From contig CALFZX010000010.1 in NCBI GenBank assembly GCA_937952315.1, forward strand, positions 5,047 to 69,046: a stretch of DNA of 64,000 nucleotides, in the 5' to 3' direction. Positions within the stretch are counted from its first letter, which is position 1. Every line of letters begins with the position of its first letter. The position numbers and the translations under genes are program-made. The stretch comes from an uncultured bacterium. GTDB lineage: Bacteria > Patescibacteriota > Minisyncoccia > CAIUEV01. Positions 1,667-25,539 of this stretch are shown here, in pieces. Under the pieces are notes generated by a model. It did no database searches and had not been told where the DNA came from. It saw only the letters and a list, made by a program, of their open reading frames with translations.

Positions 1667-3850
1667 TTATGCCCCGATCTGAAATTGACTGAACTTAACT
1701 CCTCGGAATAACTCATAATTATCGACCGGGTTGCCTTTTTCGTCTCTTATTTTTATTTCCAAACGATGTTCTCCCGGCGTCAACATATTCAGAACCAGAT
1801 TGTAATCTCCCTTGAAATCTTCTAGCTTAATTTTTTTCACAGAGACACCGTCCAACAAAAATTCGATTTCCCTCAGATATTTAATGCCCGCCTTGAAATC
1901 TATTTTTACATTAGTCGGAGAAATCCCCAAATTAACAACTTTCATTACGGCTCCATCTTTGGCAAAACGCGCCCGGCTCTTTCCCGTTCCCTCCTTTTCT
2001 CCCCAGGCATCGGAAGTGCCAGTTTCTAAAGCCAAGAGAACCCCCGAACGATTATTCTTTTCCACTTCGAAAACTGTTAATAAATCATCTTCGTAGGTTT
2101 TTTTTAAGCCCAGACTATTTTCCAGATAATCAATTGTATTTTGCCTTGCTTTATCGGTAAATTTTGCTCCGCCCTCTCGCTTACTCACCGTCACAAAACG
2201 AATATTATAAAAACTCAAGATGGACTGCCCGATCGAATCAAAATCGGTGATAATAATGTCACCATTAGGATTTTCCGGATTTTTTTCACCGCCGTCAGGG
2301 AAACTGTAAAGGATTTTTGAAATCACCGGCGTATTTTTTTGAAAAGTCCAACGGTCTTTTTCAGCCCGCGCAAAATCGATACCGTCAATCTTGTCTTTTA
2401 AATGTTTCTGAGCGGTATACATAGTGTAAGAACCGAAACTGTAGCTGGTCGAACCGGGCACTTCCAGCAAAAAGTAGTGCTCCTTATCTTGCCTTAGTTT
2501 GTCGTAGAATGAAGAATATTGCAAGTTCATTCGCGAAATCGGAAAAGAAAGATACTCCAAAAACAACGCCCCAAAGAAAATTCCAAAAACAATCAATTTA
2601 ATTTTTCTTTTTGGCTCAAAGTCAATTTTATTCAGTTTAATCGCTAAATATTTAGCGGAAAGCCCGACCAAAATCGACCAGGCAAAAAGAGCTATCATAA
2701 AAATTCGGCTGGTGGTACGAATATAATTCCAAAAAGGCAAATAATTATAAAGCCAAATATGAGGCATCCGCTCTTTGAAAAATTCCTGCCCGGCAACATG
2801 CAAGGTTGGTCCAAGGCTCAAAACAGTGAAAAGAATAAAAATTCCACCCCAAAAAATCAACCATTTTTTATCTACCGGCAACCGATTTTTTCTTTTTATT
2901 AGCGCCAGGGACAGCAAGCCCGCAAAAAGGAGAATGATAGCGGAAAAGCCCAAATAGAATGTTTGCCGACCCTCTTCGTTGGAAGCGGTATTCTCCCGAA
3001 AAACATTGAAATATTCACCCCAAAAAGGGTGAAATTCCGCCGGTAAAATAAAGTCGATTAAGTCAGCCGAGTAATTTTCCACTTGGCTAAAAGGAGGAAT
3101 CAAAAAATTATTTTCCGAATGAGCAATCTCCCAAATTTTATTGAATTGAATGGCACCAACCAAAAAAAGCAGTGCTAGACCGGTTAAAAGGATGGACCAG
3201 AAGCGCCAACTTTTTAGACAATCAGATCGCAGATAGACTACAAATGGGAAGTAAAAAACCAGAAAAAGCATAGAAAAAGCCAACAGCTGATGTTCCGTAG
3301 CAATGATTAAAATAGCAAAAACTGCCGTCCCCAAAGCCGATAACCAAGATTTTTCCTTAACAAATTTATAAAGAAACCAAGCTAGCCAAGGCAACCATTG
3401 ATAGTTCATAGCCCCAATATTAGTCGCCACTCCGTGAGCAAAATGGAAGGGAGCAAAAGCAAAGATCACCCCGGCCGTGTAAGCCGACAGCTTGGAGCGA
3501 GTAATTTCTCTTGTAAAAAGCCAGGTACCTAAAAAAGTTAAGAAAAATGAAGCCAACCAACAAAAATTATAGCCCCCCTTTTCTCCGAGAAAATATTGAA
3601 AATAACCGATAAAAGGAAGAATCCCCCAAAAATCACTGTTTCTCTGCCATTTCAAAGTAGCCAGCCAACCTTCAGTTTCTATTTTTTGAGCCGTCATCAG
3701 GGTTCGAGCCAACACTTGATAAGTATCCGGGCCCCGACCGGGCACCTCGGAAAAAAAATACGGAAAAACCGGCCATGTCAAAATAATAGTTAAAAACAGA
3801 CCCCAAAGAATCGCTTTTTTCAGTTCCCGTTTTTTTTCTTGTTTCTTCAT
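1667..3850 (-). CDS. Large polytopic membrane protein, GT-C/YfhO-like putative glycosyltransferase
   Basis: About 12 hydrophobic segments in the N-terminal ~420 aa, followed by a ~300-aa soluble C-terminal domain. The architecture matches YfhO/PMT-like membrane glycosyltransferases. The specific family is not resolved. Confidence 0.4.
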   Translation of the reverse strand: MKKQEKKRELKKAILWGLFLTIILTWPVFPYFFSEVPGRGPDTYQVLARTLMTAQKIETEGWLATLKWQRNSDFWGILPFIGYFQYFLGEKGGYNFCWLASFFLTFLGTWLFTREITRSKLSAYTAGVIFAFAPFHFAHGVATNIGAMNYQWLPWLAWFLYKFVKEKSWLSALGTAVFAILIIATEHQLLAFSMLFLVFYFPFVVYLRSDCLKSWRFWSILLTGLALLFLVGAIQFNKIWEIAHSENNFLIPPFSQVENYSADLIDFILPAEFHPFWGEYFNVFRENTASNEEGRQTFYLGFSAIILLFAGLLSLALIKRKNRLPVDKKWLIFWGGIFILFTVLSLGPTLHVAGQEFFKERMPHIWLYNYLPFWNYIRTTSRIFMIALFAWSILVGLSAKYLAIKLNKIDFEPKRKIKLIVFGIFFGALFLEYLSFPISRMNLQYSSFYDKLRQDKEHYFLLEVPGSTSYSFGSYTMYTAQKHLKDKIDGIDFARAEKDRWTFQKNTPVISKILYSFPDGGEKNPENPNGDIIITDFDSIGQSILSFYNIRFVTVSKREGGAKFTDKARQNTIDYLENSLGLKKTYEDDLLTVFEVEKNNRSGVLLALETGTSDAWGEKEGTGKSRARFAKDGAVMKVVNLGISPTNVKIDFKAGIKYLREIEFLLDGVSVKKIKLEDFKGDYNLVLNMLTPGEHRLEIKIRDEKGNPVDNYELFRGVKFSQFQIGA

Positions 3851-3859: not shown

Positions 3860-4798
3860 TTATTCTAGGCCCTTCTCAATCATGGGCGCAATCTGTTTTT
3901 TACGAGAAACTACTCCTCGTAAAATTAAATTATTCTCCGAGATCACAATGTCGGAAAAAACTTTCATTATCAAGGCTTTCTCCCTTTCTCCAATCAGAAG
4001 CATTTCCGTTCGATTTTTTAAAATATCCACAATTCCCAGATAGATCAAATCTAAATTTTCTTCTTTCTTGATTTCCGCCAGCGCTTTTTTCAATTCCGGT
4101 TCCAAAAATTTAATTTTTTCCGGTTTAACCGTCTCCACCACCCCGATTCCCACTTTAGTTCCTCCAAAATCAAAATTTTTATAATCCAGTTTAACAATTT
4201 CTCGGGGAGAAAAATCGCTTAAATCAGATTTGGCCTCAAAAAGATTATCGGCTAACTTTGTCGTGTCAACTCCTGTCACTGCGGAGAGTCTCCTCAACCA
4301 AAGACTGTCTTCCTCTGTGGCGGTCGGAGAAGTTAAGTTAAGCGTGTCGGAAATAATCCCCGCCAGCATTAATTTAGCCACCCATTTTTCAATCTCGATT
4401 TCTTTTTCAAAATAAAGCTTAGCCACCAAAGTGGATGTCGATCCGATTGGCTCAATCCGAAAGAGGATCGGCTCTTCTGTTTTAAAATCTCCGCTTAGTT
4501 TATGGTGATCGATAAGCCCGATTAGCTTGTAATTTTCTCCTTTTATGGGGCTTTGAGCCTTTTCGTTAAAATCAACAAAAAAGACTTCTTCGCCTTTTAT
4601 CTCATCGTTTTTGATTGACTTTACTTTTTTAGTGGCTCCGGCGAACTCAAGCGCAAAGGCGGTTTCTTTATTGAGACTGCCTTTTCTCATCGCCACAGCT
4701 TTTTTGCCCTTCGCTTTTAGCAACTCCGCCATAGCAACTGCGGCACAAACGCTGTCTGTGTCGGAATTGTCATGACCGATTACGATAGTTTTCTTCAT
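3860..4798 (-). CDS. ppaC: Manganese-dependent inorganic pyrophosphatase (family II, DHH/DHHA2)
   Basis: N-terminal 'IGHDNSDTDSVCAAVAMA' and 'DHHK' motifs of DHH phosphoesterases. The 312-aa length is typical of PpaC. Confidence 0.75.
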   Translation of the reverse strand: MKKTIVIGHDNSDTDSVCAAVAMAELLKAKGKKAVAMRKGSLNKETAFALEFAGATKKVKSIKNDEIKGEEVFFVDFNEKAQSPIKGENYKLIGLIDHHKLSGDFKTEEPILFRIEPIGSTSTLVAKLYFEKEIEIEKWVAKLMLAGIISDTLNLTSPTATEEDSLWLRRLSAVTGVDTTKLADNLFEAKSDLSDFSPREIVKLDYKNFDFGGTKVGIGVVETVKPEKIKFLEPELKKALAEIKKEENLDLIYLGIVDILKNRTEMLLIGEREKALIMKVFSDIVISENNLILRGVVSRKKQIAPMIEKGLE

Positions 4799-4830: not shown

Positions 4831-5451
4831 TTATTTTTCCTCCTCGCCCGAAAGCACTAAAATTACATCTTTAATCCTTTCCGGGTGGGGGATACTTTTA
4901 AAAAGAAATCTCTCTCTTTTGCCGGCCGTCTGGACATAAAGATCTCCGAAATCAAACAAAGTCGAAATTATCCCACCTATCTCCGTGGTTAGGTCCTGGA
5001 CTTTCTCTAATCTTAGCTCGGAAATTTCTCTCTTGAAAAGTCCTTTTTGCTCAATATTGATTATCCTTTCGTTCGTTATCACCCAAACATCCAGATAGTA
5101 ATCGATAAAAATAAAAAATAAAAATGCCCAAAGAAAAAGACTGATAATTGAGGCTCCGAAACTCAACATAATTTCTCCACCGCCCAACGAACCAAAGTTG
5201 ATCAGTGAAAGATAGACTATTGTCACTAAAATCAAAAATATTGCCAACGGCCAAATTTGAAGAAACAAGTTTATCCAATGTCTTCTGAGAAAAATTACCA
5301 ATTTTTCTTCGCCCGCTCCTTCCGTCAAAAGTTTTGCCACAAAAACTCGAATCTCCGAAATTTTTCTCTTTCGACTAAGCAAAATTTTGCTTTTTGCAAT
5401 TTCTTTTTCCGTAATAATTTTTTCCAGATCTCTCAGCTTTTCTTGGCTCAT
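4831..5451 (-). CDS. Membrane protein with bacterial PH (YdbS/YdbT-like) domain
   Basis: Two transmembrane helices followed by a 'WVITNERII...' PH-like fold signature. Classified by architecture. Confidence 0.5.
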   Translation of the reverse strand: MSQEKLRDLEKIITEKEIAKSKILLSRKRKISEIRVFVAKLLTEGAGEEKLVIFLRRHWINLFLQIWPLAIFLILVTIVYLSLINFGSLGGGEIMLSFGASIISLFLWAFLFFIFIDYYLDVWVITNERIINIEQKGLFKREISELRLEKVQDLTTEIGGIISTLFDFGDLYVQTAGKRERFLFKSIPHPERIKDVILVLSGEEEK

Positions 5452-5459: not shown

Positions 5460-6923
5460 CTAATTAAGTTCCTTAATTTTGACTTCAAATTGGTCGGCGT
5501 ATTTCAAAACTCGATCACCATACCAGCCAAATCGTTCCCAGTTTCCTCCGGCCAAATAGATAGAAGCGGCTTTATGCTCAGCCTTTTTTTCGTGATTGGT
5601 TACACCCGGCACCTTAGCTAACTTCAAGCCCATCGCCGTCAAAGCGTCTCTCAAATTCCAGGGGTCTGCCGGATTATGCCCATTGATTCTGGCAATTTCG
5701 TCTTTATATCCCATCCAGGTGCTTGGCATAAATTGAGCCGGCCCCATCGCCCCGCCCCAACCGCTACAATTTCCGGAAGAGTCACGATAACAAGGCTTGC
5801 GCGAGACCGGTCGATCGTCGGGATCATAGCCAAGCGATGCGCAAATTGACTTAAAACGGTCCCACTGAGCCGGATTCATATCCGTTTTGTAACGACCGCC
5901 ACCTACATTATTTCCCATATTTGATTCCACTCTTAGCACCCCAAGCAAAAAGGCCGTTCTCACTCCGGTTAAACGAGCCACATCTTGTGCATCACTTAAG
6001 GCTTGGCCGAAATCTATTTTTTCACCCAAGCTTTGCATCGAGGTCAACTCTGCCGAAAGGCGATTAGCCACTTCTTGTTGTTTATTGATAGCGTTATCCA
6101 GCTTGTACTGCTCAGTTTGGGTTTCCGCCAAAAGGCTTCCTCGATCTCTCCGATTTTTTTCCAGAGTTATTCGTTGATCTTCCTGCATCGCATAGAGCGA
6201 AGCCTGTTCATTTTGCTGATCTTCAAGATTTTCTTTTTCTTTAATTAACTCGGTTTTTTTATCTTTTAAACCGTCCAGCATCTCTTTAATCCGACTTTCA
6301 AAGGCAACGATGCTTTCGATTTCTCTAAAATATTCCGACAATTGCGGTTTTTCCAAAATAACTTCCAAAAACGACTTTTTATCCATCAAATTAAGCTTTC
6401 TGACATATTCCATTAAGATTTTTTTTCGCTCCACGATCTCAAACTCCTTAATGGAAACTTCCTGTTTTTTCTGATTGACCGAAGCGGTAATTTCGTTCAA
6501 CAAAATACTGGTTTTTTCCAGTGAGGCTTCCGCTTCCGATATTTCATCGTCTAAAGCTTTGAGAATTTGCTCAATTGTATCCGTTTTTTTCTCCAGCAAA
6601 TCAGATTTTTCTTCAAAACGATCGATTTGCCTTCGAACCGAATTTAGCTGTTCCTTTTTTTTGGCAATTTCTTCCTGTTTTTTAGCCAAATCGGCCGGTG
6701 GCGGAGCCGCCGGAGCGCTCGGACCGGCGTTTGAATTTGGAGAAGCTGTGTTTGTGTTGTTGTTATTATTATCGTCAGCTGGGGTTGTGCCAATATTATT
6801 ATTTTGATTGGCGCTAAAAACGAAATTGAAAGAAACAAAAAAACCGAGCAAAACCGCTCCGGTTAGCCAATTTAAGCCTTTTAGGCTGTCTTGGTTTTTA
6901 AAAATTTTCGGCAGATGATTCAT
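5460..6923 (-). CDS. Membrane-anchored coiled-coil protein with C-terminal lytic murein transglycosylase (SLT_2/MltB-like) domain
   Basis: N-terminal transmembrane segment, then an Asn/Thr/Pro-rich low-complexity tract, then ~250 aa of heptad-like coiled coil. The C-terminus carries 'RVESNMG...GAMGPAQFMPSTW', which matches the MltB-family catalytic region. Confidence 0.6.
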   Translation of the reverse strand: MNHLPKIFKNQDSLKGLNWLTGAVLLGFFVSFNFVFSANQNNNIGTTPADDNNNNNTNTASPNSNAGPSAPAAPPPADLAKKQEEIAKKKEQLNSVRRQIDRFEEKSDLLEKKTDTIEQILKALDDEISEAEASLEKTSILLNEITASVNQKKQEVSIKEFEIVERKKILMEYVRKLNLMDKKSFLEVILEKPQLSEYFREIESIVAFESRIKEMLDGLKDKKTELIKEKENLEDQQNEQASLYAMQEDQRITLEKNRRDRGSLLAETQTEQYKLDNAINKQQEVANRLSAELTSMQSLGEKIDFGQALSDAQDVARLTGVRTAFLLGVLRVESNMGNNVGGGRYKTDMNPAQWDRFKSICASLGYDPDDRPVSRKPCYRDSSGNCSGWGGAMGPAQFMPSTWMGYKDEIARINGHNPADPWNLRDALTAMGLKLAKVPGVTNHEKKAEHKAASIYLAGGNWERFGWYGDRVLKYADQFEVKIKELN

Positions 6924-6933
6924 CTTCGATTTT

Positions 6934-8769
6934 TTATTTTTCCTTCTTTTTAAGATCTTCGAGAATTTTTCTTAAGTCATTTTTCAATTTCTCTCTTGCT
7001 TCATTCGAAACCGCCCCTTTCGGATGGTTATTTTTTTGAACGGAGTTCGTCGATCCATGGATAATAGCCGCTTTGTGACTACGAATTTCTCTTAGACATT
7101 CTTTGCAAAAAACATCTCTGCCCTCTTGAGGAACAAAGGGCACTTTAGTTTTTTGACCGCAACGATCGCAAACCGCTTCATTCCAAACCGCTTTTTTTTC
7201 AACTTCTTGAGCTGACTCCGATGATATTTTCTCTTTTTTCATTTCAACCGTGCTAATATTCTTTTCTTCTTGAGTCGGTATGAATTCGCTTATTTTTTCC
7301 TGCATTTTTTTCTCCACTTCAACTGTTCTCAAATCCGGCCCCCCGATAATTTGAGAAGGCGACATAAATTTTTCCCGATCTGAATTTTCTTTTTTCACTT
7401 CTAACGATTTTTTAGCTAAAGGCTTGGAAACGTTCTCTTTTTTTCTGTCTTCCTTTTTTCTATTCTCCCGATCAGCTACAAATCTTTTTTGAAGCCATTT
7501 TAAAATCTTGGCCTCCACCTCCTCACGCGGTCGTCCATATCTTTCTCGTGAATGTTGAATCGCTTTATCCATGCAAGAAACAGCCGGTAACGGGAAGGGC
7601 GGAAGACCTTTGGCACTGAAAGCGTCACCGGAGACTCCGTCGATCATTAACTTTAAATAAATATTGTATTTCGGTAAGTTAATTATGTCGTTCATTTTAA
7701 CTGTCGGTTCAAATTCTTTTTCTAAAAATTCCGCGTCGGAAGCCCCGACTCGAAAAGATACCAAGGTGCCGACATTCCCAAAAACAGAGTCTCTTACCGG
7801 TTCAGTCAACTGCGCTACATACTGGTGAGCCACAATTAAGCTCAAGCGGTATTTTCTGGCTTCTGACAAAATACTGGCAAAAGATTCGGTGGCGAAATTT
7901 TGAAACTCGTCCACAAAAAGAAAAAAATCTTTTCTTTCTTTTTCCGCCTGATCAACCCTTTCCATCGCGGCTAAATAGAGTCGAGTGACCACCATTCCAC
8001 CGAGCAAAGCCATTGCCTCTTCGCCGATTCGTCCCTTTGAGAGATTCACAATCAAAATCTTTTGCTGATCCATAATTTCTCGCATATTGATTGTTGATTT
8101 TGTTTGACCGACAATGTGTCGAACGATCGGCGTTGACACGAATTGTCCCACCTTATTTTGGATGGCGGCCGTTGCCTCTCGCGCAAACCGTTGATCCCAC
8201 TTGCCAAATTCCTCCAGCCAAAAAGATCGGACGATTGGATCTTTGACTCTCTCTATCACCTGATCTCTAAATTCCTTTTCGGCCATCATTCGGTTAATCC
8301 CAAGCATCGTGCTTCCCGGATAGTCCAGAAGGGCTAAAATTGTATTGTTGAGGATATATTCCATTCGCGGGGACCAGACATCCGGCCAGATTTTCTTAAA
8401 GACTCCCATCATTCCCGAGGCGATCAGGTGCTTATGATCTTCATCGACTGCTTCAAGAATATTAAAGGCTACCGGATTTTCCAAATCGGAAGGATTGAAA
8501 TAGACCAAATCGTTCACTCGACTCTTGGGAATAAATCTCAACACTTCCTCAGCGCTGTCTCCGTGAGGATCGACAAAGGCCACACCGTTCCCCTTAAGAA
8601 TATCCTGAATCACTAGATTTTTGAGCAACACAGACTTTCCCATTCCCGTTTTTCCGATAATATACATATGCCTTCTCCGATCATCCAATTTGATGCCGAA
8701 GGTTTTCTCCTCACCTCTAAAATTAGTCTTTCCAAAAACGGTAATATCTTCCTCCTTAAGAAAAGCCAT
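6934..8769 (-). CDS. TraD/TraG/VirD4-like P-loop ATPase (type IV coupling-protein-like) with C-terminal zinc ribbon
   Basis: Walker A 'IIGKTGMGKS' and Walker B 'FFLFVDEFQNF', as in T4SS coupling proteins and HerA-like ATPases. The C-terminus contains 'CDRCGQ...CKEC', a CxxC-x17-CxxC ribbon. Confidence 0.55.
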   Translation of the reverse strand: MAFLKEEDITVFGKTNFRGEEKTFGIKLDDRRRHMYIIGKTGMGKSVLLKNLVIQDILKGNGVAFVDPHGDSAEEVLRFIPKSRVNDLVYFNPSDLENPVAFNILEAVDEDHKHLIASGMMGVFKKIWPDVWSPRMEYILNNTILALLDYPGSTMLGINRMMAEKEFRDQVIERVKDPIVRSFWLEEFGKWDQRFAREATAAIQNKVGQFVSTPIVRHIVGQTKSTINMREIMDQQKILIVNLSKGRIGEEAMALLGGMVVTRLYLAAMERVDQAEKERKDFFLFVDEFQNFATESFASILSEARKYRLSLIVAHQYVAQLTEPVRDSVFGNVGTLVSFRVGASDAEFLEKEFEPTVKMNDIINLPKYNIYLKLMIDGVSGDAFSAKGLPPFPLPAVSCMDKAIQHSRERYGRPREEVEAKILKWLQKRFVADRENRKKEDRKKENVSKPLAKKSLEVKKENSDREKFMSPSQIIGGPDLRTVEVEKKMQEKISEFIPTQEEKNISTVEMKKEKISSESAQEVEKKAVWNEAVCDRCGQKTKVPFVPQEGRDVFCKECLREIRSHKAAIIHGSTNSVQKNNHPKGAVSNEAREKLKNDLRKILEDLKKKEK

Positions 8770-8812
8770 TTTTTTATTTTAAAAATCTCGACTGAATTCC
8801 TCAGTCAACTTG

Positions 8813-8897
8813 TACCGAAGGTGGGACTCGAACCCACACAAGGGGATACCTTAAGGGATTTTAAGTCCCTCGCGTCTACCAATTCCGCCACTCCGGC
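8813..8897 (-). tRNA. tRNA-Leu (anticodon TAA), type II with long variable arm
   Basis: Reverse complement folds as a cloverleaf: acceptor GCCGGAG/CTTCGGT, D-arm GCGG..CGC, anticodon loop CTTAAAA, long variable arm, T-arm GTGGGTTCGAGTCCCAC, discriminator A. Confidence 0.8.
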
Positions 8898-9096: not shown

Positions 9097-10419
9097 ATGG
9101 CTGAAATAAAAGCGCCCAATGTTGAAACTTTCGCCAGAATAAAAGTCGTAGGAGTCGGAGGGAGCGGTGGCAATGTCATTGCTCGAATGAAAGAAGTCGG
9201 TTTACGAGGTGTTGAATTGGTAGCAATAAACACCGATGCTCAAGCCTTGCATCAAAGCGGTGCGGAGGAAAAGATCCACATTGGCAAAAATTTAACCAAA
9301 GGTCTCGGAGCCGGTATGAACCCCGAAGTTGGCCGACAAGCGGCCGAAGAAAATCGAGACGAAATTCAAGATGTTCTCAAGGATGCGGATATGATTTTTA
9401 TTGCCTGCGGGATGGGTGGAGGAACCGGAACGGGCGCCTCACCGGTTGTTGCTGAAGTGGCAAAAGAATCCGGCGCTTTAACTGTAGCTGTTGTCACCAA
9501 ACCTTTCAGCTTTGAAGGAATGCAAAGATCTATGATCGCAGAGGAAGGCTTGGAGCAACTGAAAGATCGTGTTGACGCTCTGGTTGTCATTCCCAACGAT
9601 CGACTACTACAAATAATTGACAAAAAAATCAGCCTGATAAACGCTTTTAAAATCGTTGACGATGTTTTGAGACAGGGCGTGCAAGGTATTTCCGATTTAA
9701 TTACTATTCCGGGAGTCGTCAATGTTGACTTTGCCGATGTTAAAGCTATTATGCAAGATACCGGCCCCGCCTTGATGGGTATCGGTCGCGCTTCCGGCGA
9801 GAATAGGGCAAGCGAAGCGGCCAGACAAGCTATCAATTCGCCGTTGCTTGAAATGTCTATCGAGGGAGCCAAAGGAGTTCTTTTCAATGTCACCGGCGGA
9901 GATGATTTGAGTATGCTGGAAATAAACGAAGCGGCTAACACCATTACCGAGACAATTGATCCGAACGCAAAAGTTATTTTCGGTGCCGTCAGTTCCATCG
10001 CCGACAATGACTTAAAGAAGGGAGAAATTAAAATAACCGTCATCGCCACCGGCTTTGAAGACGCCGAACTTGGCAATCAGAATTTTAATCAAAGAGAATC
10101 GATCGCGGTGCCTCAAGAAGGCCAAAAAGAGGCAGACGAACCGAAGAGAAGTTTTCAAAAAGCCGAGCCGATTGTCGATGAAGGTGTTTCTGACAGTTAC
10201 TACTCAGACAACGCTCTTTTTAGACGAGAGGAAAAGCCTCTAATTAAGTCTGAGAGAAGAGACTATGATTCTTACGATTATGGATATGATGGGCTAGACA
10301 ATCCCAATATTTCTCCCGCTTCCCCCGTTGAGACCAAAGAAGAGGAAAGCGAGCCGGAGGAAGATTTGGATATCCCCGCCTTTATTCGTAGAAAAATGCA
10401 GGATCGGGAGCGAGAATAA
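9097..10419 (+). CDS. ftsZ: Cell division protein FtsZ
   Basis: Tubulin signature 'GGGTGTG', plus '[11 protein letters not shown]' and 'VVIPNDRLL' blocks. The C-terminal linker is long and acidic. Confidence 0.95.
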
Positions 10420-10464
10420 TTATCTTGTCTCTTGAGTTTTAATTTTATTTATTTATTAAAAATT

Positions 10465-10785
10465 ATGTGGGCAATTATTGAGACCGGAGGCAAACAGTAT
10501 CGTGTCGAACCGGAGGAAAAAATAGAAGTAGAAAAAATCAAAGCGGAAAAAGATTCAGTCATTAAACTGGATAAAGTTCTTTTTATTAGCAAAGATGACG
10601 AAGGCAAAGACATTATAATCGGCCAACCTTATATCGAGAAGGCGGAAGTTGAGGCTTTGGTCTTGGACGAAATCAAAGGCGACAAAGTCACTATTTTCAA
10701 ATACAAACCAAAAAAACGCTATCGAGTAAAAAAAGGCCACCGACAAACTTACACTCGACTGCAAATCAAAAAAATTATTGGCTAG
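10465..10785 (+). CDS. rplU: 50S ribosomal protein L21
   Basis: 'MWAIIETGGKQYRV' N-terminus and 'KKGHRQTYTRLQI' C-terminus are typical of L21. The ORF-track start at 10432 is probably an upstream alternative. Confidence 0.85.
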   Translation: MWAIIETGGKQYRVEPEEKIEVEKIKAEKDSVIKLDKVLFISKDDEGKDIIIGQPYIEKAEVEALVLDEIKGDKVTIFKYKPKKRYRVKKGHRQTYTRLQIKKIIG

Positions 10786-10825: not shown

Positions 10826-11965
10826 ATGAGAGTTTTGCTTACCGGCGGAGGAACCGGCGGACATCTTTCTCCTCTTTTAGCCATAGCTAAAGCCCTCCAG
10901 AAGGAGGCCGATCTGAAAAAAGAACCCTTAAAAATACTCTACTTAGGCCCCTGCAACAATCTCTCCGATCTTATCTTAAAATCGGCCGGTATTGAGACTC
11001 GCAATGTTATGGCCGGAAAGTGGCGTCGCTATTTTTCTTTTATGAATTTCGTTGATATTTTTAGAGGGTTTTTTGGACTTTTACAGGCCCTGGTTAAGGT
11101 TTTGATTTTTATGCCCGATGTCGTTTTCTCAAAAGGAGGCTACGGCAGTGTTCCCGTCGTTCTCGCCGCTCGTCTTTTTTTGATTCCTATTATAATTCAT
11201 GAGTCGGACGCCGTTCCGGGCAAAGCTAATCGCATTATGCAACACTTTGCCGATGTGATAGCCGTTTCTTATGAAATGACTAAAGGATTTTCCGATCCGA
11301 CCAAAACTTATTTCACCGGCAGTCCGGTGCGAGAAAATTTATTGGGAGGAGATCCCGCTCGGGCAAAAAGCATGCTTGGCATAAGAACGGAGAAGCCGAT
11401 TTTGTTGATTCTGGGAGGTAGCCAAGGAGCGAAAAAAATCAACGAAGTCATCGGTCAAATCTTAAATCGACTTGTTGAAACTTACGAAATAATCCATCAA
11501 TGCGGCGAGAAAAATTTCGATGAGACCAAAGACTTGGCCGGAAAAGCGGGCATAAAAATCAATAGAGAAAATTATCATCTCTACCCCTTTATGCGCGACG
11601 AAAAGGAAGAATTAAAAAACGCCCTCGCCTGTGCCGACTTAGTATTAAGCCGAGCCGGCGCCAGCTCTATCGCTGAAATCGCCGCTTACGGCAAACCCAG
11701 TATTTTGGTTCCTTTGCACGGATCGGCCAACGATCATCAAATTCACAACGCCTTTGAAGTGGCTAAAGCGGGAGCCGCCATTGCTCTGCGGGAGGAGAAT
11801 CTTACTCCCGAGCTACTTCTCGGGAAAATTGATATTTTAATGAATGATTTACCTCTCCGTCAGATGATGGGAGAAAAAGCTAAACTTTTTTATCATCATG
11901 AGTCAGCTACTACTATCGCCGATATCGTTCTAAAGCTAGGCAATAAAGAGAAATTAAAAGACTAA
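10826..11965 (+). CDS. murG: Undecaprenyldiphospho-muramoylpentapeptide beta-N-acetylglucosaminyltransferase
   Basis: N-terminal 'LLTGGGTGGHLSP' G-loop and C-terminal GT28 'GGSQGA' block. Confidence 0.9.
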   Translation: MRVLLTGGGTGGHLSPLLAIAKALQKEADLKKEPLKILYLGPCNNLSDLILKSAGIETRNVMAGKWRRYFSFMNFVDIFRGFFGLLQALVKVLIFMPDVVFSKGGYGSVPVVLAARLFLIPIIIHESDAVPGKANRIMQHFADVIAVSYEMTKGFSDPTKTYFTGSPVRENLLGGDPARAKSMLGIRTEKPILLILGGSQGAKKINEVIGQILNRLVETYEIIHQCGEKNFDETKDLAGKAGIKINRENYHLYPFMRDEKEELKNALACADLVLSRAGASSIAEIAAYGKPSILVPLHGSANDHQIHNAFEVAKAGAAIALREENLTPELLLGKIDILMNDLPLRQMMGEKAKLFYHHESATTIADIVLKLGNKEKLKD

Positions 11966-11967: not shown

Positions 11968-12408
11968 ATGAAAATCGATTTTCACAAAAAACTGAATCGT
12001 CCTAAATTTTTTGAAATTACTCTTATCGTCACCACCGTTTTAGCCGGCTTTATTCTCTATTGGCAGGAAAAAGTCAATCACAATCTCGATAGTCAAAAAA
12101 GTTGGCTCAATTTCTATTTCGTTGATCCGATCGAACCGCAGAAGGGTGTTGAGTTCAATAACCATCTTGGTTATGAAACCGAATTTCGACTTTGTCTGAT
12201 ACCCGACAGCGATGATTTGATGGAACCGAAAGATATCTCTTGCAATCTGGAAACCGTTCTGTCGGCGGAAAGAAAAAAAGTCGCCCCTACCGAAAAATTT
12301 TCTTGGCAATGGCCGAATCAAGATCGAGCAGGGAAATACTGGGTGTTGCTTCAATATGTAACCAAAGACGGCCAAGAGAATAAAAGAAGCTTGTCTTTTG
12401 TGAAATAA
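11968..12408 (+). CDS. Hypothetical small membrane-anchored protein
   Basis: Single N-terminal transmembrane helix. It lies 2 nt after the murG stop. No recognisable motif. Confidence 0.4.
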   Translation: MKIDFHKKLNRPKFFEITLIVTTVLAGFILYWQEKVNHNLDSQKSWLNFYFVDPIEPQKGVEFNNHLGYETEFRLCLIPDSDDLMEPKDISCNLETVLSAERKKVAPTEKFSWQWPNQDRAGKYWVLLQYVTKDGQENKRSLSFVK

Positions 12409-18060: not shown

Positions 18061-19371
18061 ATGAACATCCAATCTTCAGATACTTTAAGTTTGCCCAAAA
18101 ATGAAATATATCGCCAAAGAGACTCTTGGGGCAACTTGATTCGCAAACTGATTTCATTGTTTATCGTCGTTTTTCCTTGGGTTATTTTTCCTTTCAGCGA
18201 GGGGCCTCTTGAAGCTTTAAGGGGGAAGACTTTGTTTGTTTCCATGATTTTTCTGACAGTCCTTTGGCTCCTTCGAAGCTTGGAACAAAAAAAATTTGAA
18301 TGGCGCAAGACTCGAATCAATTGGCTTTTTTTCTCCGGACTGGCCGTTCTTTTTTTATTTTTTCTTTACGCGCCCAGCTTGAGATACGCTTGGAACGGCT
18401 ATACGGGTAGCGAGACCGGCGGATTCAGCGAACACTTAGCTTTTGTTCTCTTCTTTTTTTTAGCTGTTCAGCTTTTTGATGTACCGACTTGGGAAAAGAA
18501 TATTCGTTTTTTTCTAGCTTCCGGTTTGCTCACTTTATTAGCTTCTATTTTGGCGGCTATCTTTTTTCAGGATAACAATTTGTTGACTCTCAACTTTGCC
18601 AAAACCCCCACGCTTTTCACCGCTTTCTGCGGAGTAACTGCCTTCTCTTTTTGGTGGCTAAAGAAAAAATCGGAACCGCTCCTAAAGGGAAGGATTTTTT
18701 TAGTTTCTCTGCTTTTGCTTTTCATTGCTTCGTTACTCGATTTTTATTTGGCTTGGTGGATGTGGTTCGCTGGAATTTTCACCCTTCTAATCTTGGATTT
18801 AATTGTAAAAATTGAAAAATATTTGAAAGATCGTGAATCAAGCTACCTGAATCTAAAGGGAAGCGGTAGGGCCGATTTCTTGAGTGAACTTTTCCGAGGC
18901 GATTTCAAATATCTCTCCTTGATTCTGCTTTTTACTTTTTCTCGAGCCGTTTCACCGGTTTTTTTGGGTCAAAAGGAGCTTGTCGTTATGCCTTTTTCGG
19001 CTTATTTGGAAAAATTCTCCGTCTTCGGCCAAAGAGTCTATTTTTATCTCATTTTGAACGGAATTATTTTCTTACTTGGTCTTTACCATTTTTTCAAACT
19101 AAAGAAAGAAAGACAGGCTATCGGTATTGTTCTTAGCGGTTTAGTATGTATTTCCGTCGGTCACTTGCTTTATTTTTCGGAAAGCACCTTGCTCTTTTTC
19201 TTGAATTGGATCTTGATTATTTTTGGCGGATTAACCTTTCTGCGTAAACCGCCGGAAAGAGATTTTATGTATCTGTTGGAGGGGGGCTCTCGCAAAAAAG
19301 TTTTTATTTTTATAGTTTCTGTGCTTACCATTGCATTAACTGGAATGGTTTATCTAAAATTGTTAATTTAA
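18061..19371 (+). CDS. Polytopic integral membrane protein (possibly Wzy/O-antigen-ligase-like)
   Basis: At least 10 hydrophobic helices. Divergent from galU. Function not resolved. Confidence 0.45.
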   Translation: MNIQSSDTLSLPKNEIYRQRDSWGNLIRKLISLFIVVFPWVIFPFSEGPLEALRGKTLFVSMIFLTVLWLLRSLEQKKFEWRKTRINWLFFSGLAVLFLFFLYAPSLRYAWNGYTGSETGGFSEHLAFVLFFFLAVQLFDVPTWEKNIRFFLASGLLTLLASILAAIFFQDNNLLTLNFAKTPTLFTAFCGVTAFSFWWLKKKSEPLLKGRIFLVSLLLLFIASLLDFYLAWWMWFAGIFTLLILDLIVKIEKYLKDRESSYLNLKGSGRADFLSELFRGDFKYLSLILLFTFSRAVSPVFLGQKELVVMPFSAYLEKFSVFGQRVYFYLILNGIIFLLGLYHFFKLKKERQAIGIVLSGLVCISVGHLLYFSESTLLFFLNWILIIFGGLTFLRKPPERDFMYLLEGGSRKKVFIFIVSVLTIALTGMVYLKLLI

Positions 19372-20855: not shown

Positions 20856-23800
20856 TTAAACTTTGATTTTTAATCTTTCTCTTTTTTCCTCCTCTTCACC
20901 GATTAATGTCGCAAAAAGTACCGGCACGATCATCAGAGTAAAAAATGAAGACAAGCTCAAGCCGAAAATAATTGTTCCGCCAAGCGCTTTCCAGAGTTCG
21001 TTGGAAAGAGTGATCGGAATGATACCGAAAATTGTGCAGATTGAGGTGATAAAGATAGCCTCCAACCTTGATTTCCCGGCATCAACAATAGCTTCTTGAA
21101 AAGGAATATTGCTCCCCAAATTCAAATTTATTTTATCAATTAAAATAATCGCATTTTTGACCACAATCCCGAATAGAGCCAAAATTCCGATCAAACCGGG
21201 AAAACTTAAATTGATTCGAAAAATCGCTAAACCGATGAAAACCCCGATTAGCGCTAGAGGGAAAGTAGCCAGAACGATTAAGGCTTTTTTGAAGGAGTTA
21301 AATTGAATAATCATTGTTGAAAAGATCAAAAGACCGGCCACAATCATAGCTTTAAGAATTGATATCACCGACTCCGCATTCTGTTCGTTCTCTCCTCCGT
21401 AAACAATCTCGTAACCGGTCGGTAAAGTGTACTGCTCCTTCAGTTTTTTCTGAAAATCGGCTAGAACTTGATTCGGTCGCGTTTTCCCGCTGACTCCGGC
21501 CGTTAGGGAAACGGTTCGTTTCTGATCGGTTCGGGTGATGGTCTCTACCGAAGGCTTAAGCTCTACTTTCGCTATATCCTTTAGAAAAATTGCTGTTCCG
21601 GTCGGGCTTAAAATTTGCAAATTTTGCAAAGACTCCAAATCGGGCACCGCTCTTTTGTCAAAACGAGCCACGATTTTTATCTCCTTGTTATCTCTGATTA
21701 TTTTGCTCACTTCCATCTCTGAGACGGCCATTCGCAAAAAAGAAGAAACGGCCGGAATACTCAAGCCGGAGACCTTCAGTCTTTCTCGATCAATCAAAAA
21801 AGTATATTCAGCCGGTGCTTCTTTCAAGGAAATATCTTCGTTGATAACCCCGTCAATTTGGCTGAGAATTCTCTTTAGATCATTTGCCACCTTGTCTAAG
21901 ACTTGAAGATCTTCACCCTCGATTCTCGCCTCAAAAGCCGAGCCGGAAGGTGGCCCACCGCTCGGAGATTCGACTGTTATTTCCGCGTTTTTAATGCTTT
22001 TTAAATCGTTTCGAATCTTATCCGCCAAATCGTAAGAAGTAATCTCGCGACTGTTTTTATCAATTAAATTCATTGTCACAGAAGCTAAATTGGAGGAGGA
22101 GCTTCCCATTCCATCCCCTCCGCCTTGGCCGACCAAAGTTGAAAATTTTTCTATTTCCGGATATTTTAACAATTGAGCCTCAACTTTTTCCACGATTTTA
22201 TTGGTTTCTTCCAGTTTCAAGCCGGACGGCGCTTCGAGATTAAGATAGAGGCTGTCCTCGTCGGAGACGGAAAAAAATTCGGTTGCCACAATGCCGGACG
22301 CCGGCAAAGAGGCTGAGCCGAGAAAGAGGAGCAGAGTTCCGATCAAAGCTCCCCAGCGCCTTTTTCTCGTGGCTAAGATATAGCGAAGTTGCTTTTCATA
22401 GAGCGGTAAAATTATATTTATATTTGTAATTCCGGAGAAAATTCTTTGCCAAAAAGTTTTTTTTCTTCCTTCCGCCCGATCGGCTAATTTTTCTTTGATC
22501 ATTTCCGGATTTTCCCACTCGAGATTGACTAATTTTTCACTAGCCATCGCTCTTTTTCTTCCTTCCGCCAGATACCATCTCAAAAAGACTACCGCTACTG
22601 TCAGAGCGATAAAACCGATTGAGAAGCCGGCAGTATTCCGCATTAAAACAGCCGTAGCGGTGCCCCCCAAAATAATTATCGAAAAAATTCCGAAGAAAAA
22701 GCTACGAGTAAATCTTATGCGCTCCAAGATAGCAGCCATCGGATGATTTATCATTAAAGCGATCAACAGAGAGGCGGTCAATGTCACCGAGACAGTAATC
22801 GGGATCGATTTAATAAATTCTCCGATGATACCGGTTGCTAAGAGTAGGGGCAAAAAGGCCCAAACTGTTGTCAAAGTGGTCGTTACTAAAACCCATTTGA
22901 AGTCGCGCAACACTAAAATTACCGCCTGCTCCGGTGTAAATTTACCGGTTTTCAAATATTGTTTAGTCGCCGAAACAACAACAATAGCGTCATCAACGAG
23001 CAAGCCGAGCGATAACAGCAATGAAAAAATCGAAAGGAAATTTAAGCTTATCCCCGCCAATTCCATCACTCCAAAACTAATAAAAAAAGTCAGGGGAATG
23101 GCCATACCGGCCACAAAAGCCTCCTTGACACCAACCAATAGAATAAGCACCAACGAGACTAAAAATAAAGTTAGAAAAAAGTCGTGTGTCAGCTGATCGA
23201 AATCTTCTTTAATCATTTCAGACATGTCGGTCGTATAGGCGTATTCCATGCCTTCCGGAAAATTACCGCTCATCGTCTCGATTTTTTGTTTAGCCTCATC
23301 AATCGTTTTGAGAATCGATCCGCCGGTTTTTTTTATTAAGCTGATAGAAACCGCGTTTTTCGGATCTTCTCCTCCGGTGGAGAATCGTGAATAGACTGTC
23401 TTTTCAATCGCTTTTTCGCGGACATCCGCCAAGTCTTTCAAATAAACAATTGCCCCGTTTTCCGTTGAAATAATCGGTAAATTCTTGATCTGATCGGCAT
23501 TCACAAGCCGAGCATCGGATTTAATGGCATAATTATATTTTTCACCGGAAAAACTACCGGCCGGCATAAGTAAATTACCGGAAGCGATTATTTGATTAAC
23601 CTGTTCGGCGGAGATTTTGAAACTTTCCAGCTTTTCCGGATTATAAGCGACTTCGATCTCTCTTTCCTCCCCGCCTGAAACTTTAACTTCCCGCACGCCA
23701 GCAATCTTTTCCAGTTCATCTTGAAGTTCTTCAGCTTTTTGTCTCAGCGTAAAACCATCATATCTACCGGCCAATTCGATATTGAAAATCGGACGATCGT

Positions 23801-24308
23801 CAAAAGAAATCTCGTTCACCGACGAATCCCCCGCCTCTTCCGGTAATTCTCGTTGAATCGAGTCAACCTCGTCTTTCAGTCGCCTGATCGAGTCTTCAAG
23901 GTCCTCTCCCGCTTCAAACTCAACTACCAACGAGGATGTTGAGTTGGAAGAATAGGATGTGATCTTGTCGATACCTTTAAGACCGGAAACGGCCGTTTCT
24001 ATTTTTTTAGTGATTAGCTCTTCTACATCGGAAGGAGATGCTCCCGGAAGCACGGTAAAAACAGTAGCGATCGGTATTTTTACTTCCGGGTTAGATTCTC
24101 TAGGCAAACTGATAAAGGAATAGATTCCCCAGAGAGCGGAAAGCATTATCAGCAGCATTACTACTCGAAAATTGGACACAAAAAAACTCAACCAAGACTT
24201 TTTCAGTTCCGGATCCCATTTCAATTTTTGTAAATAAAGCAAATCTGAAGATTCAAAATCTTTACTATTGGGACTTTTTTTGCCAAAAATTCTATCTTTC
24301 CAGCTCAT
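20856..24308 (-). CDS. Efflux RND transporter permease (AcrB/HAE-like)
   Basis: 1150 aa with 12 transmembrane helices in a 1+5/1+5 layout and two large extracytoplasmic loops. Confidence 0.85.
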   Translation of the reverse strand: MSWKDRIFGKKSPNSKDFESSDLLYLQKLKWDPELKKSWLSFFVSNFRVVMLLIMLSALWGIYSFISLPRESNPEVKIPIATVFTVLPGASPSDVEELITKKIETAVSGLKGIDKITSYSSNSTSSLVVEFEAGEDLEDSIRRLKDEVDSIQRELPEEAGDSSVNEISFDDRPIFNIELAGRYDGFTLRQKAEELQDELEKIAGVREVKVSGGEEREIEVAYNPEKLESFKISAEQVNQIIASGNLLMPAGSFSGEKYNYAIKSDARLVNADQIKNLPIISTENGAIVYLKDLADVREKAIEKTVYSRFSTGGEDPKNAVSISLIKKTGGSILKTIDEAKQKIETMSGNFPEGMEYAYTTDMSEMIKEDFDQLTHDFFLTLFLVSLVLILLVGVKEAFVAGMAIPLTFFISFGVMELAGISLNFLSIFSLLLSLGLLVDDAIVVVSATKQYLKTGKFTPEQAVILVLRDFKWVLVTTTLTTVWAFLPLLLATGIIGEFIKSIPITVSVTLTASLLIALMINHPMAAILERIRFTRSFFFGIFSIIILGGTATAVLMRNTAGFSIGFIALTVAVVFLRWYLAEGRKRAMASEKLVNLEWENPEMIKEKLADRAEGRKKTFWQRIFSGITNINIILPLYEKQLRYILATRKRRWGALIGTLLLFLGSASLPASGIVATEFFSVSDEDSLYLNLEAPSGLKLEETNKIVEKVEAQLLKYPEIEKFSTLVGQGGGDGMGSSSSNLASVTMNLIDKNSREITSYDLADKIRNDLKSIKNAEITVESPSGGPPSGSAFEARIEGEDLQVLDKVANDLKRILSQIDGVINEDISLKEAPAEYTFLIDRERLKVSGLSIPAVSSFLRMAVSEMEVSKIIRDNKEIKIVARFDKRAVPDLESLQNLQILSPTGTAIFLKDIAKVELKPSVETITRTDQKRTVSLTAGVSGKTRPNQVLADFQKKLKEQYTLPTGYEIVYGGENEQNAESVISILKAMIVAGLLIFSTMIIQFNSFKKALIVLATFPLALIGVFIGLAIFRINLSFPGLIGILALFGIVVKNAIILIDKINLNLGSNIPFQEAIVDAGKSRLEAIFITSICTIFGIIPITLSNELWKALGGTIIFGLSLSSFFTLMIVPVLFATLIGEEEEKRERLKIKV

Positions 24309-25539
24309 CTCCTTCGTTTAAATATTTATTACCTTCCACCACCACTTCTCTATCCTCCGGCAAATCAATTTTTACTCGAGCTTTTTCTCCTTCAATTTCT
24401 TCTATTTCGACAACGATTTTTTTTGCTTTACCGTCTTCAGCAATGAAGATATAATTTTCGTTTTGATCGACCGTAATAACAGAAAGAGGAATAAGGAAGA
24501 TGTTTTTCTCCTGAATAATTTCTTTTTTTGGCACTTTTATATTTACTAAAGTGCCGGGAATCAATTCTGAATAACCCTTTGGGATTTCCGCTTCCACCAA
24601 AAACCGACGAGAGGCATCGTCTGCAGAAGGAGCAACGGCACTGATTTGCCCCTCCAAATCACGATTTTGATTTGTTTTAACCGTAATTTTTGTTCCTTTG
24701 TTTAGATGATTCAGCTCATCTTCACTCACAAAAAAAGTAATTTTTATGGTTTCTCGATCGGCGATGGTCAGCAAAGCTTGCCCGGGAGAAACATATTCTT
24801 TTTCTTCAACCATTTTAGCTGTCACTACTCCGTCGAATGTCGCGACCGGAGAAGCGCTTTCCTTTAGGCTCTTTAGCGTAAGACCGGCACTTTTTTCCTG
24901 CAATTGAGCCACTTCTTTTTGCATTTTACCCGCTTTAAGTTGAGAATTTAGATTTTTTTCCAAACTTTTGATTTGTTGATTCAATAATTCAACTTTATCC
25001 GCCTCACCGTCTGCCTCGGCCTGCTTTTTGGAGAGCTTCAAATATTTTAAATCGCTTTCCGTTGATTTTTTAAGATTTTTGTACGCTCGTTCCGCCGATT
25101 CGGTTGCCTGCTTAGCTTGTTCCAGACCCAATTCGGCCTGCTTGATGGATGTTGAATCAATGCCCTCGCCATAAGCACCTCTGTCTCTAACTTCTTCGAT
25201 TTGTAAAAGCTTGTCCCCGACAGAAACTTCGTCGCCCAAATCGAAATTAAGCTCCGTAATCGTGCCATTTGTGGACGCAACTATATTAGTTTCCGATTCG
25301 GCTACCACTTGCCCCAAATAATTGATTTCCGAAGCGGAGGATTTAAAATCGATTAGTTTTTTTAATTCGGCTTTTTTTGGAATGACTTCTTCCGCCTGCA
25401 CCGGTGTTTTTGATCCAAGCCATTGTTTTATTGTCGGCGCCAAAAAGCTGGACAAGCTGAATATTAAGGCCAGAAAAGCTCCCACGACCAAAAACTTATC
25501 CGTGGCTCTGAACGATCTTTTTCCTTTTCTAGATTGCAT
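24292..25539 (-). CDS. Efflux RND periplasmic adaptor (membrane fusion protein, HlyD-like)
   Basis: N-terminal transmembrane helix, long coiled-coil hairpin, beta-barrel C-terminus. Overlaps the RND gene by 17 nt. Confidence 0.75.
   Translation of the reverse strand: MQSRKGKRSFRATDKFLVVGAFLALIFSLSSFLAPTIKQWLGSKTPVQAEEVIPKKAELKKLIDFKSSASEINYLGQVVAESETNIVASTNGTITELNFDLGDEVSVGDKLLQIEEVRDRGAYGEGIDSTSIKQAELGLEQAKQATESAERAYKNLKKSTESDLKYLKLSKKQAEADGEADKVELLNQQIKSLEKNLNSQLKAGKMQKEVAQLQEKSAGLTLKSLKESASPVATFDGVVTAKMVEEKEYVSPGQALLTIADRETIKITFFVSEDELNHLNKGTKITVKTNQNRDLEGQISAVAPSADDASRRFLVEAEIPKGYSELIPGTLVNIKVPKKEIIQEKNIFLIPLSVITVDQNENYIFIAEDGKAKKIVVEIEEIEGEKARVKIDLPEDREVVVEGNKYLNEGDELER

Follow-up and report, generated by a model that had tools for sequence, protein, structure and literature searches.

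Gene Pair Under Study

We analyzed a stretch of 64,000 nucleotides (the window; all positions below refer to it) from contig CALFZX010000010.1 of assembly GCA_937952315.1, which belongs to an uncultured bacterium of the Patescibacteriota lineage CAIUEV01. Two adjacent genes, one for an ATPase resembling a type IV coupling protein (T4CP) and the other for a lytic transglycosylase (LT), were the subject of this work. A preliminary description of this DNA had interpreted them as a VirD4 plus VirB1-like pair forming a minimal device for DNA uptake or export. The explanation that we favor, with a probability of about 0.6, is that they are two independent conserved genes of Patescibacteria which have become neighbors in one sub-lineage and do not constitute a minimal type IV secretion system (T4SS). 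Domain identities, motif conservation, model folds, gene orders and gene fusions were computed here.

8769..6934, minus strand: ATPase gene, 611 aa; VirD4/TraD-type (T4CP-like) protein free of transmembrane (TM) segments, with a C-terminal zinc ribbon
6923..5460, minus strand: LT gene, 487 aa; exported or anchored protein with a probable EnvC/CwlO-type coiled coil followed by an MltB-type LT domain

The ATPase Is of the VirD4/TraD Type

The following parts were distinguished in the ATPase.

7480..8769, minus strand: nucleotide-binding domain with an inserted all-alpha domain, aa 1-430 (TrwB_AAD_bind aligned over aa 29-323; AlphaFold2 (AF2) model)
8632..8655, minus strand: Walker A motif GKTGMGKS, aa 39-46 (from the translation; G39, K40, T41, G42, G44 and K45 invariant in alignment A3)
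7903..7920, minus strand: Walker B region LFVDEF, aa 284-289 (from the translation; D287 and E288 invariant)
7180..7479, minus strand: linker rich in K and E, aa 431-530 (predicted to be disordered; 19 K and 17 E per 100 residues)
7342..7371, minus strand: linker motif KFMSPSQIIG, aa 467-476 (alignment A1)
7084..7179, minus strand: treble-clef zinc ribbon CxxC-x17-CxxC, aa 531-562 (C534, C537, C555 and C558; all four Cys invariant)

Pfam, NCBIfam and Foldseek agree with the preliminary description that this is a VirD4/TraD-like ATPase with a C-terminal zinc ribbon. In Pfam, TrwB_AAD_bind (PF10412; 34.6 bits, gathering threshold (GA) 20.5) and TraG-D_C (PF12696; 25.1 bits, GA 22) were both found above their thresholds, and so was DUF87 (25.7 bits, GA 23.2). 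The NCBIfam models of the TraD/VirD4 type scored below their cut-offs (SXT_TraD, 49.7 bits vs. 366; CTn2 CD1115, 41.9 bits vs. 250), the sub-threshold match to the VirD4-like CD1115 family spanning aa 28-346; VirB4 models gave only 15-20 bits. No match to FtsK or FtsK_SpoIIIE was detected in Pfam or NCBIfam, and the sequence matches in PDB were limited to TrwB and DotL.

The AF2 model has a mean predicted local distance difference test (pLDDT) value of 72.5 and includes a RecA-like core (80-94) and a terminal helix. The zinc ribbon, whose structure prediction had been recommended in the preliminary description, is modeled confidently (about 90), while the linker falls below 50 at aa 447-478 and 497-526. 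The best Foldseek match of the model was TrwB (E 1.6e-10; TM-score normalized to target 0.51-0.54), closely followed by HerA, with Cag-beta and DotL also present and no chain of TrwK in the top 50.

Because of these profile, PDB and Foldseek matches and the missing FtsK match, the ATPase is of the VirD4/TraD type and is not an FtsK paralog, an alternative for which the preliminary description had left room. A role as FtsK substitute was likewise rejected: a full-length FtsK is encoded separately near the ATPase ortholog in a related 1.2-Mb genome (locus L090), and TM7x has ftsK as well (PMC10768705).

The protein contains no hydrophobic segment (the maximal Kyte-Doolittle mean over 19 residues is 1.35), and the N-terminal TM domain of T4CPs is absent; Walker A begins at residue 39. 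The nucleotide-binding region (aa 1-430) is nearly invariant across 53 homologs; the linker fails to align among homologs. Within the linker, the motif KFMSPSQIIG was seen only in the sub-clade to which the window belongs: alignment A1 has it in the window protein and in the sub-clade orthologs P0005 and P0012, against gaps in the 11 remaining sequences. It may be a lineage-specific interaction motif. The zinc ribbon was recognized by zf_Tbcl_2 (PF23477; 49.6 bits, GA 27; aa 531-561) and by NCBIfam TIGR04272, the CxxC-x17-CxxC family (50.5 bits); a domain of this kind binds zinc in small proteins of M. mazei (PMC12704099).

Distribution of the ATPase Family and Its DUF8128 Partner

The ATPase family proved to be very large. 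We recorded at least 8000 homologs (all of the 8000 candidates), and all named matches belong to Patescibacteria. More than 100 listed homologs are 55-87% identical to the window protein, and all of them have PF10412 and PF23477 in the same domain order. At least 517 species-level loci (one genome per species) were confirmed as containing relatives of the ATPase, and an exhaustive search of cluster representatives yielded 6,616 at E <= 1e-30. In published work, 5,713 VirD4-type/T4CP homologs were reported in 2,918 of 3,035 Patescibacteria genomes, with only 148 of them near virB4 (PMC12102498). According to the same study, almost every genome of the phylum has about two orphan "T4CP" genes that are not linked to a T4SS and whose function is unresolved (PMC12102498).

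To describe the surroundings of the ATPase, neighboring genes were clustered in 80 fetched loci, 79 of them outside the sub-clade to which the window belongs and one (L001) inside it. In all 79 outside loci a gene for DUF8128 (PF26449), a membrane protein of about 420 aa, is located directly upstream of the ATPase gene, with a median gap of 29 nt. A gene for a DNA-binding protein combining Sigma70_r4 and a HARE helix-turn-helix (HTH) domain precedes the DUF8128 gene in 65 of 81 loci. In the 1.2-Mb Patescibacteria contig mentioned above the order is ftsK, HTH gene, recA, DUF8128, ATPase (L090:1890-9893). It should be mentioned that DUF8128 is called there as two open reading frames (ORFs), 231 and 130 aa long; this is suggestive of a frameshift or of additional splitting.

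Fusions point to the same partnership: of the 150 nearest cluster representatives, 63 are single proteins with DUF8128 N-terminal to the ATPase, and two such fusions were verified by hhalign (E 2.6e-64 and 5.6e-50). The zinc-ribbon tail was found in only 13 of these 150 representatives and in none of the fused ones; therefore, it is a lineage-variable appendage, as are the tails of TraD and DotL.

The AF2 model of DUF8128 (predicted TM-score 0.72) shows an alpha/beta domain preceded by an N-terminal TM segment. Only 14 chains, all of TrwK/VirB4 from R388, were significant Foldseek targets of this model, and the DUF8128 profile had no match among PDB sequences. DUF8128 models as a fold like that of the VirB4 N-terminal domain (NTD) and EccE.

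Relatives were also found on plasmids. An 883-aa "DUF87" protein of Shouchella clausii plasmid NZ_CP012476 is a DUF8128-ATPase fusion (hhalign probability 98.4%), and its gene adjoins those for a replication-relaxation protein and for conjugal transfer. Since this fused architecture stands beside relaxase-like and conjugal-transfer genes on a Bacillota plasmid, the family can be regarded as a monoderm-type coupling protein. An "ATP-binding protein" near the Shouchella fusion is cut at the edge of the locus, and its VirB4-like nature is an assumption only. In the relative from the haloarchaeal plasmid pHTS138 a DUF8128 region is missing. The plasmid relative closest in its ATPase domain (42.6% identity; 395 aa; L093:5986-7173) comes from Sulfitobacter plasmid NZ_CP081110.1, where it is a lone gene among transposase and recombinase genes, without DUF8128 or T4SS neighbors.

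The gene is annotated in databases, and the orphan T4CPs of Patescibacteria have been published. We have seen no report of the TM-less form with a zinc ribbon, of the VirB4-NTD/EccE-like nature of DUF8128, of the fusions or of the uncoupled arrangement in the sub-clade, and a literature search found no mention of DUF8128 or PF26449.

The LT Combines a Probable EnvC/CwlO-Type Coiled Coil With an MltB-Type Domain

The second protein of the pair has the following parts.

6810..6923, minus strand: N-terminal hydrophobic segment, aa 1-38 (Kyte-Doolittle peak at aa 17-38); signal peptide or signal anchor
6024..6689, minus strand: putative EnvC/PcsB/CwlO-type coiled coil, aa ~79-300 (profile A5 against PDB)
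5463..6008, minus strand: family-3 (MltB/Slt35-like) LT domain, aa 306-487 (hhalign against E. coli MltB)
5925-5927, minus strand: codon of the predicted catalytic E333 (aligned to MltB E162)

The preliminary description had called this protein membrane-anchored. The single N-terminal hydrophobic segment is there; with its end at ...VFSA|NQ, and with AxA-like ends in homologs, it may be cleaved off as a signal peptide instead of serving as an anchor.

When a profile of 36 LT homologs was compared with the whole PDB, EnvC-type chains came first (8hd0_E, E 6.5e-9; 6tpi_A; 8tzk_E; 8i6o_E), the match covering about 210 columns and including the characteristic loop between the coiled-coil hairpins. 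The single LT sequence had no match in PDB, NCBIfam gave a weak EnvC match, and LT homologs are named "CwlO-like" by JGI. Taken together, this is moderate evidence for the EnvC type of the coiled coil as judged from sequence. In characterized systems the coiled coil of EnvC, CwlO and PcsB is the module that docks to FtsX.

An MltB-type domain at the C-terminus, also predicted in the preliminary description, was found. SLT_2 is the sole LT-family match in Pfam (27.8 bits, GA 24.3), and hhalign aligned about 100 columns with E. coli MltB (probability 94.9%, E 4.7e-8). The segment GAMGPAQFMPST of the LT aligns with the MltB motif GAMGxxQFMPST, and both E333-S334 and GWGGAMGPxQFxPxTW are invariant in the 36 homologs. 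The NCBIfam MltB models reached 17-18 bits against cut-offs of 248-449 and do not recognize a full-length domain. With this predicted catalytic domain the protein represents a transglycosylase flavor that is new for regulated hydrolases of the EnvC/CwlO type.

The ATPase-LT Adjacency Is Confined to One Sub-clade

The LT gene is surrounded by different genes in different lineages. LT homologs of Moranbacteria (41-51% identity; L085, L086 and L091) are located after ftsW/rodA and rplY, with no ATPase nearby, and this ftsW/rodA-rplY neighborhood is the ancestral context of the LT. Outside the sub-clade the ATPase and LT orthologs are unlinked in 79 of 79 loci. In one genome of 1.2 Mb the LT lies about 265 kb from the DUF8128-ATPase pair, while the ATPase neighborhood contains ftsK and recA.

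The adjacency itself was found only in L001, L081-L084 and L088, and on shared contigs of about 5 kb: LT homologs with 55-89% identity share contigs, some of them of about this length, with ATPase homologs of 61-87% identity. Among the 80 clustered loci, the order ATPase-LT-bPH-ppaC occurs only in L001, a close relative. Thus, the ATPase-LT pair is a derived but stable feature of the sub-clade.

The other features of the locus are the following.

8812..8897, minus strand: tRNA-Leu(UAA), directly upstream of the ATPase gene (ARAGORN and Rfam)
8788-8808, minus strand: terminator-like hairpin and T-run, located after tRNA-Leu and ~19 nt before the ATG of the ATPase gene (terminator scan)
5451..4831, minus strand: gene for a membrane protein with a bacterial pleckstrin homology (bPH) domain, 206 aa (Pfam bPH_2, 29.4 bits)
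4798..3860, minus strand: ppaC, Mn-dependent inorganic pyrophosphatase, 312 aa (NF003877, 321 bits; DHH and DHHA2 domains)
3850..1667, minus strand: gene for a polytopic membrane protein, 727 aa (multiple hydrophobic segments)
9097..10419, plus strand: ftsZ (Pfam Tubulin and FtsZ_C), divergent from the ATPase run
10432-10785 and 10826-11965: rplU and murG, respectively, after ftsZ and divergent from the ATPase run; context conserved in the sub-clade

Five ORFs thus run head-to-tail on the minus strand, beginning with the ATPase gene and separated by spacers of 10, 8, 32 and 9 nt; in this respect (ORFs, order, single strand, spacers of 8-32 nt and the 10-nt ATPase-LT gap), and in the identity of the bPH and ppaC genes, the preliminary description was accurate. 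The hairpin stands before the whole run, and therefore its expression may need read-through or an unrecognized promoter. The bPH_2 protein has hydrophobic peaks at aa 66-84, 89-107 and 98-116. The 727-aa protein has no Pfam match in the window copy; its earlier label, similar to glycosyltransferases of the C superfamily (GT-C), is plausible on sequence grounds because the ortholog in L083 matches PF19830 (DUF6311).

These genes are kept unevenly. The bPH, ppaC and DUF6311 genes follow the LT gene in only some members of the sub-clade; the bPH gene is present in the run of L001, L083 and L088 and absent from that of L081. On the other side, murG-rplU-ftsZ is divergent from the ATPase-LT pair in L001, L081, L083 and L088, with cysS inserted between ftsZ and the ATPase gene in L081. 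A 146-aa protein without Pfam match is encoded next to murG in the window (11968-12408, plus strand) and kept beside it in L001, L081 and L083.

Search for DUF8128 and T4SS Components Around the Pair

Neither DUF8128 nor its HTH partner was found in the 64-kb window by tblastn with more than 140 queries or by hmmsearch of ORFs of at least 50 aa, and the Sigma70_r4 plus HARE-HTH gene is absent from it. DUF8128 and the HTH gene were likewise missing from roughly 10 kb of additional flanking sequence of this assembly and from the sub-clade loci examined. A polytopic membrane protein of 436 aa without Pfam match is encoded at 18061-19371 (plus strand); as a candidate for a hidden DUF8128 it was rejected (hhalign probability 0.1%).

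Every sizeable ORF of the window was compared with Pfam. In agreement with the preliminary description, no relaxase, VirB4, VirB6 or other T4SS gene was revealed in the window and the ~10 kb flank (about 74 kb in total). A second ATPase of the T4CP/VirB4-like kind was found in the window neither by phmmer nor with the family hidden Markov model (HMM). Within 10 kb of the ortholog, none of the 80 loci contained a second ATPase recognized by the profile of the family itself, which a divergent VirB4 could escape. The only secretion-type ATPases of the window are PilB-like (27922-32781).

Comparison With Known Systems

Like the T4CPs VirD4, TrwB of R388, TraD of F and DotL, the window ATPase has a nucleotide-binding domain of the FtsK/HerA superfamily that contains the Walker A motif, the Walker B motif and an all-alpha insert, and it shares with TraD and DotL a variable C-terminal tail. 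It differs from them in having no N-terminal TM domain and a CxxC-x17-CxxC zinc ribbon as its tail. Furthermore, it is not encoded beside a relaxase or VirB4/VirB6 but is a chromosomal, phylum-wide and unusually conserved protein. HerA is the second-best fold match, and DUF87 scores above its GA; the window protein, whose P-loop begins already at aa 39, has no N-terminal region for a HAS barrel of the HerA kind, and NurA, SIR2 or DUF4297 partners are not encoded nearby. In distinction from VirB4 (TrwK), the ATPase scores as VirD4/TraD-type. For its usual partner DUF8128 the likeness to VirB4 and EccE lies in the modeled fold, with no sequence-level similarity to any PDB chain.

Among monoderm systems, the ATPase domain of the Shouchella fusion is homologous to that of the window protein (26.6% identity, with 96% of the domain covered), and the C. 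difficile CTn2 CD1115 family aligns with it at the HMM level. The plasmid proteins lack the zinc ribbon; the window, in turn, has no DUF8128, relaxase or conjugal-transfer genes in cis. The T4CP TraJ of pIP501 also lacks a membrane domain, and the small two-TM protein TraI was proposed as its anchor (PMC12857230). By this description, TraJ is similar to the ATPase relatives as a soluble coupling ATPase relying on a separately encoded membrane protein; the candidate anchor of the relatives is different from TraI, being about 420 aa long with a VirB4-NTD/EccE-like domain.

The LT resembles EnvC of E. coli, PcsB of S. pneumoniae and CwlO of B. subtilis in that a long exported coiled coil is followed by a wall-cleaving domain. 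That domain is a predicted LT instead of LytM, CHAP or NlpC/P60, and FtsE/FtsX are unlinked here. With MltB/Slt35 it shares the catalytic Glu-Ser and the GAMGxxQFMPST motif, but the LT domain is shorter, has three invariant Cys, and is part of a protein with a coiled coil and without a lipobox. VirB1 proteins are generally of the SLT family-1 (PF01464) type. The window LT is similar to them in its predicted cleavage of glycan strands and in being encoded beside a T4SS-family ATPase; it differs in matching SLT_2 only and in lying outside any T4SS cluster.

Other Loci of the Window

A low-GC island with three large genes is located at 38973-47594 (plus strand; GC 0.34 vs. about 0.41 elsewhere). 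The first gene encodes an 1106-aa fusion of an HKD/PLD nuclease with an SNF2 helicase (DrmD and "HKD+Snf2" in PADLOC); the second, whose start overlaps the first by 4 nt, encodes a 560-aa protein with Schlafen/AlbA_2 and HATPase_c_4 domains; the third encodes an 1172-aa methyltransferase that is Eco57I/MmeI-like type IIG or DrmMI-like. The region looks like a DISARM-like or type IIG defense island.

At 27922-32781 (plus strand) lie genes for a 1010-aa protein, in which T2SSE (PilB-type) ATPase domains occur as a tandem pair, and then for a second, PilB-like ATPase of 594 aa; ftsW comes directly thereafter (32784-33890). Two more loci encode an AcrB-type resistance-nodulation-division (RND) pump of 1150 aa with a HlyD-type adaptor (20856-25539, minus strand) and a HlyD adaptor, an ATP-binding cassette (ABC) ATPase and two MacB-type permeases, with a histidine kinase after them (51509-56059, plus strand). 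The RND and MacB-type loci encode parts in the style of tripartite efflux systems, and the organism is presumed to have a single membrane.

Weighing of the Explanations

Several observations weigh against the view that the ATPase and the LT are independent genes with the roles proposed below. The 10-11-nt ATPase-LT spacer is kept despite divergence to about 61% (ATPase) and about 55% (LT), and the persistence of the pair exceeds that of usual random neighbors. DUF8128 and the HTH gene are absent in cis from the window and the sub-clade loci examined; therefore, the proposed membrane docking in this organism rests on an unseen gene. The conservation of the ATPase across lineages of the candidate phyla radiation (55-70% identity) is far above that of typical T4SS parts. 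In Southlakia the T4SS is essential, but epibiotic growth does not require the T4CP homolog, which may be exapted (PMC12102498); this argues for a role beyond feeding a T4SS. The helical insert of the ATPase model (approximately aa 110-235) has a pLDDT of 55-74, i.e., moderate confidence. Finally, the EnvC match of the LT sits in a coiled coil with high compositional bias (38 bits, bias 33), and the window contains no FtsE/FtsX gene, only the MacB-type ABC system at 51509-56059.

The stability of the pair would fit a division module specific to the sub-clade, in which the ATPase would take part in FtsK/HerA-like clearance or segregation of septal DNA and be co-expressed with a CwlO-type LT that splits the septum. 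The murG-rplU-ftsZ genes divergent from ATPase-LT in four loci (L001, L081, L083 and L088), the coiled coil typical of FtsEX-controlled division hydrolases, the FtsK/HerA superfamily of the ATPase with HerA as the second-best fold match, and the position of the L090 ortholog just downstream of ftsK, the HTH gene and recA are all consistent with it. However, the link to ftsZ exists in this sub-clade only, a tRNA gene and a hairpin (and cysS in L081) separate ftsZ from the ATPase gene, and relatives also keep a canonical FtsK (L090; TM7x ftsK, PMC10768705). We consider such a module unlikely.

Equally doubtful is a further reading. According to it, DUF8128 and the ATPase, usually with the sigma4/HARE-HTH DNA-binding protein, would make up an undescribed and near-universal membrane motor of Patescibacteria, a hybrid that joins a VirD4-like ATPase to an N-terminal module of the VirB4 kind and works independently of T4SS clusters. 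In the sub-clade, loss of DUF8128 would have been accompanied by rewiring of the ATPase, which carries the KFMSPSQIIG motif and is encoded together with the CwlO-type LT beside ftsZ; DNA handling would in this way be coupled to septal wall cleavage.

The minimal DNA-uptake or export device of the preliminary description, with a VirB1-like wall-opening role for the LT and DNA pumping by the ATPase in the absence of VirB4, VirB6 and VirB8-B11, appears to us very improbable. It could explain why the two genes are co-directional, separated by 10 nt and conserved together within the sub-clade, and why the usual DUF8128 partner is missing in cis; furthermore, contacts between a T4CP and a VirB1 protein were reported for pIP501 (TraJ with TraG), according to a citation in PMC12857230. 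However, a membrane channel component, for example VirB6, is missing. A soluble cytoplasmic ATPase and an exported LT could act jointly only through a membrane component, and none is evident. The LT belongs to family 3, on an EnvC/CwlO-type scaffold with ftsW/rodA-rplY ancestry, and not to the VirB1 type; outside the sub-clade the orthologs are unlinked, as shown by the 79 loci and by the genome where about 265 kb separate them. The smallest described set of a Gram-positive T4SS consists of VirB1, VirB4, VirB6 and VirD4, so that VirB4 and VirB6 are still needed (PMC3464263). The preliminary description had stated that such pairs were proposed as minimal devices; we found no paper proposing devices of VirD4 and VirB1 only, and the main text of Wang et al. 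(2023) does not mention VirD4 or T4CP.

An anti-phage role, as an ATPase like mad8 of the MADS system or as a HerA-type effector, is hardly credible and was rejected on gene context: the PADLOC mad8 match (73 bits, E 5.9e-21, aa 10-371) and the weak HerA matches are opposed by the lack of any other mad gene, SIR2, DUF4297 or nuclease adjoining the ATPase gene, whose neighbors are tRNA, ftsZ, LT, bPH and ppaC, and by a family that is single-copy, phylum-wide, highly conserved and located among housekeeping genes, the opposite of defense islands (the defense-like island of the window is elsewhere, at 38973-47594). The MADS HMMs were built from HHpred alignments (bioRxiv 10.1101/2023.03.30.534895) and are therefore probably broad.

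Proposed Roles and Significance

Under the explanation that we favor, two conserved genes with separate roles, the ATPase would be the catalytic half of a bipartite coupling motor of the monoderm type. By analogy with VirD4, TraD and TrwB, it may assemble into a hexameric ring that uses ATP to act on DNA or nucleoprotein substrates at the membrane, to which it would be linked in nearly all relatives by docking to DUF8128, encoded upstream or fused. The linker and the zinc-ribbon tail would most likely recruit a substrate or an adaptor. The ATPase may serve a Patescibacterial T4SS encoded elsewhere or may have been exapted from it.

The LT, in turn, is predicted to be an extracytoplasmic wall enzyme with an intact catalytic Glu. 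Most likely it would cleave glycan strands during growth or division under the control of an FtsEX-like transporter. In the sub-clade both genes would have been relocated beside ftsZ, where they may at most be co-expressed.

Patescibacteria account for a substantial part of the bacterial diversity that has escaped cultivation, and the majority of the genes conserved among them lack an assigned function. For one of these genes, the orphan "T4CP", the data presented here suggest an anatomy: the soluble VirD4-type ATPase and, ahead of it, the membrane module DUF8128 would be the two halves of one protein that is encoded either split or fused, and the same DUF8128-ATPase architecture serves as an apparent coupling protein on a conjugative-type plasmid of Bacillota. 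For the window itself the value of this result is mostly corrective, as the idea of a minimal T4SS stems from the gene order of one sub-lineage.

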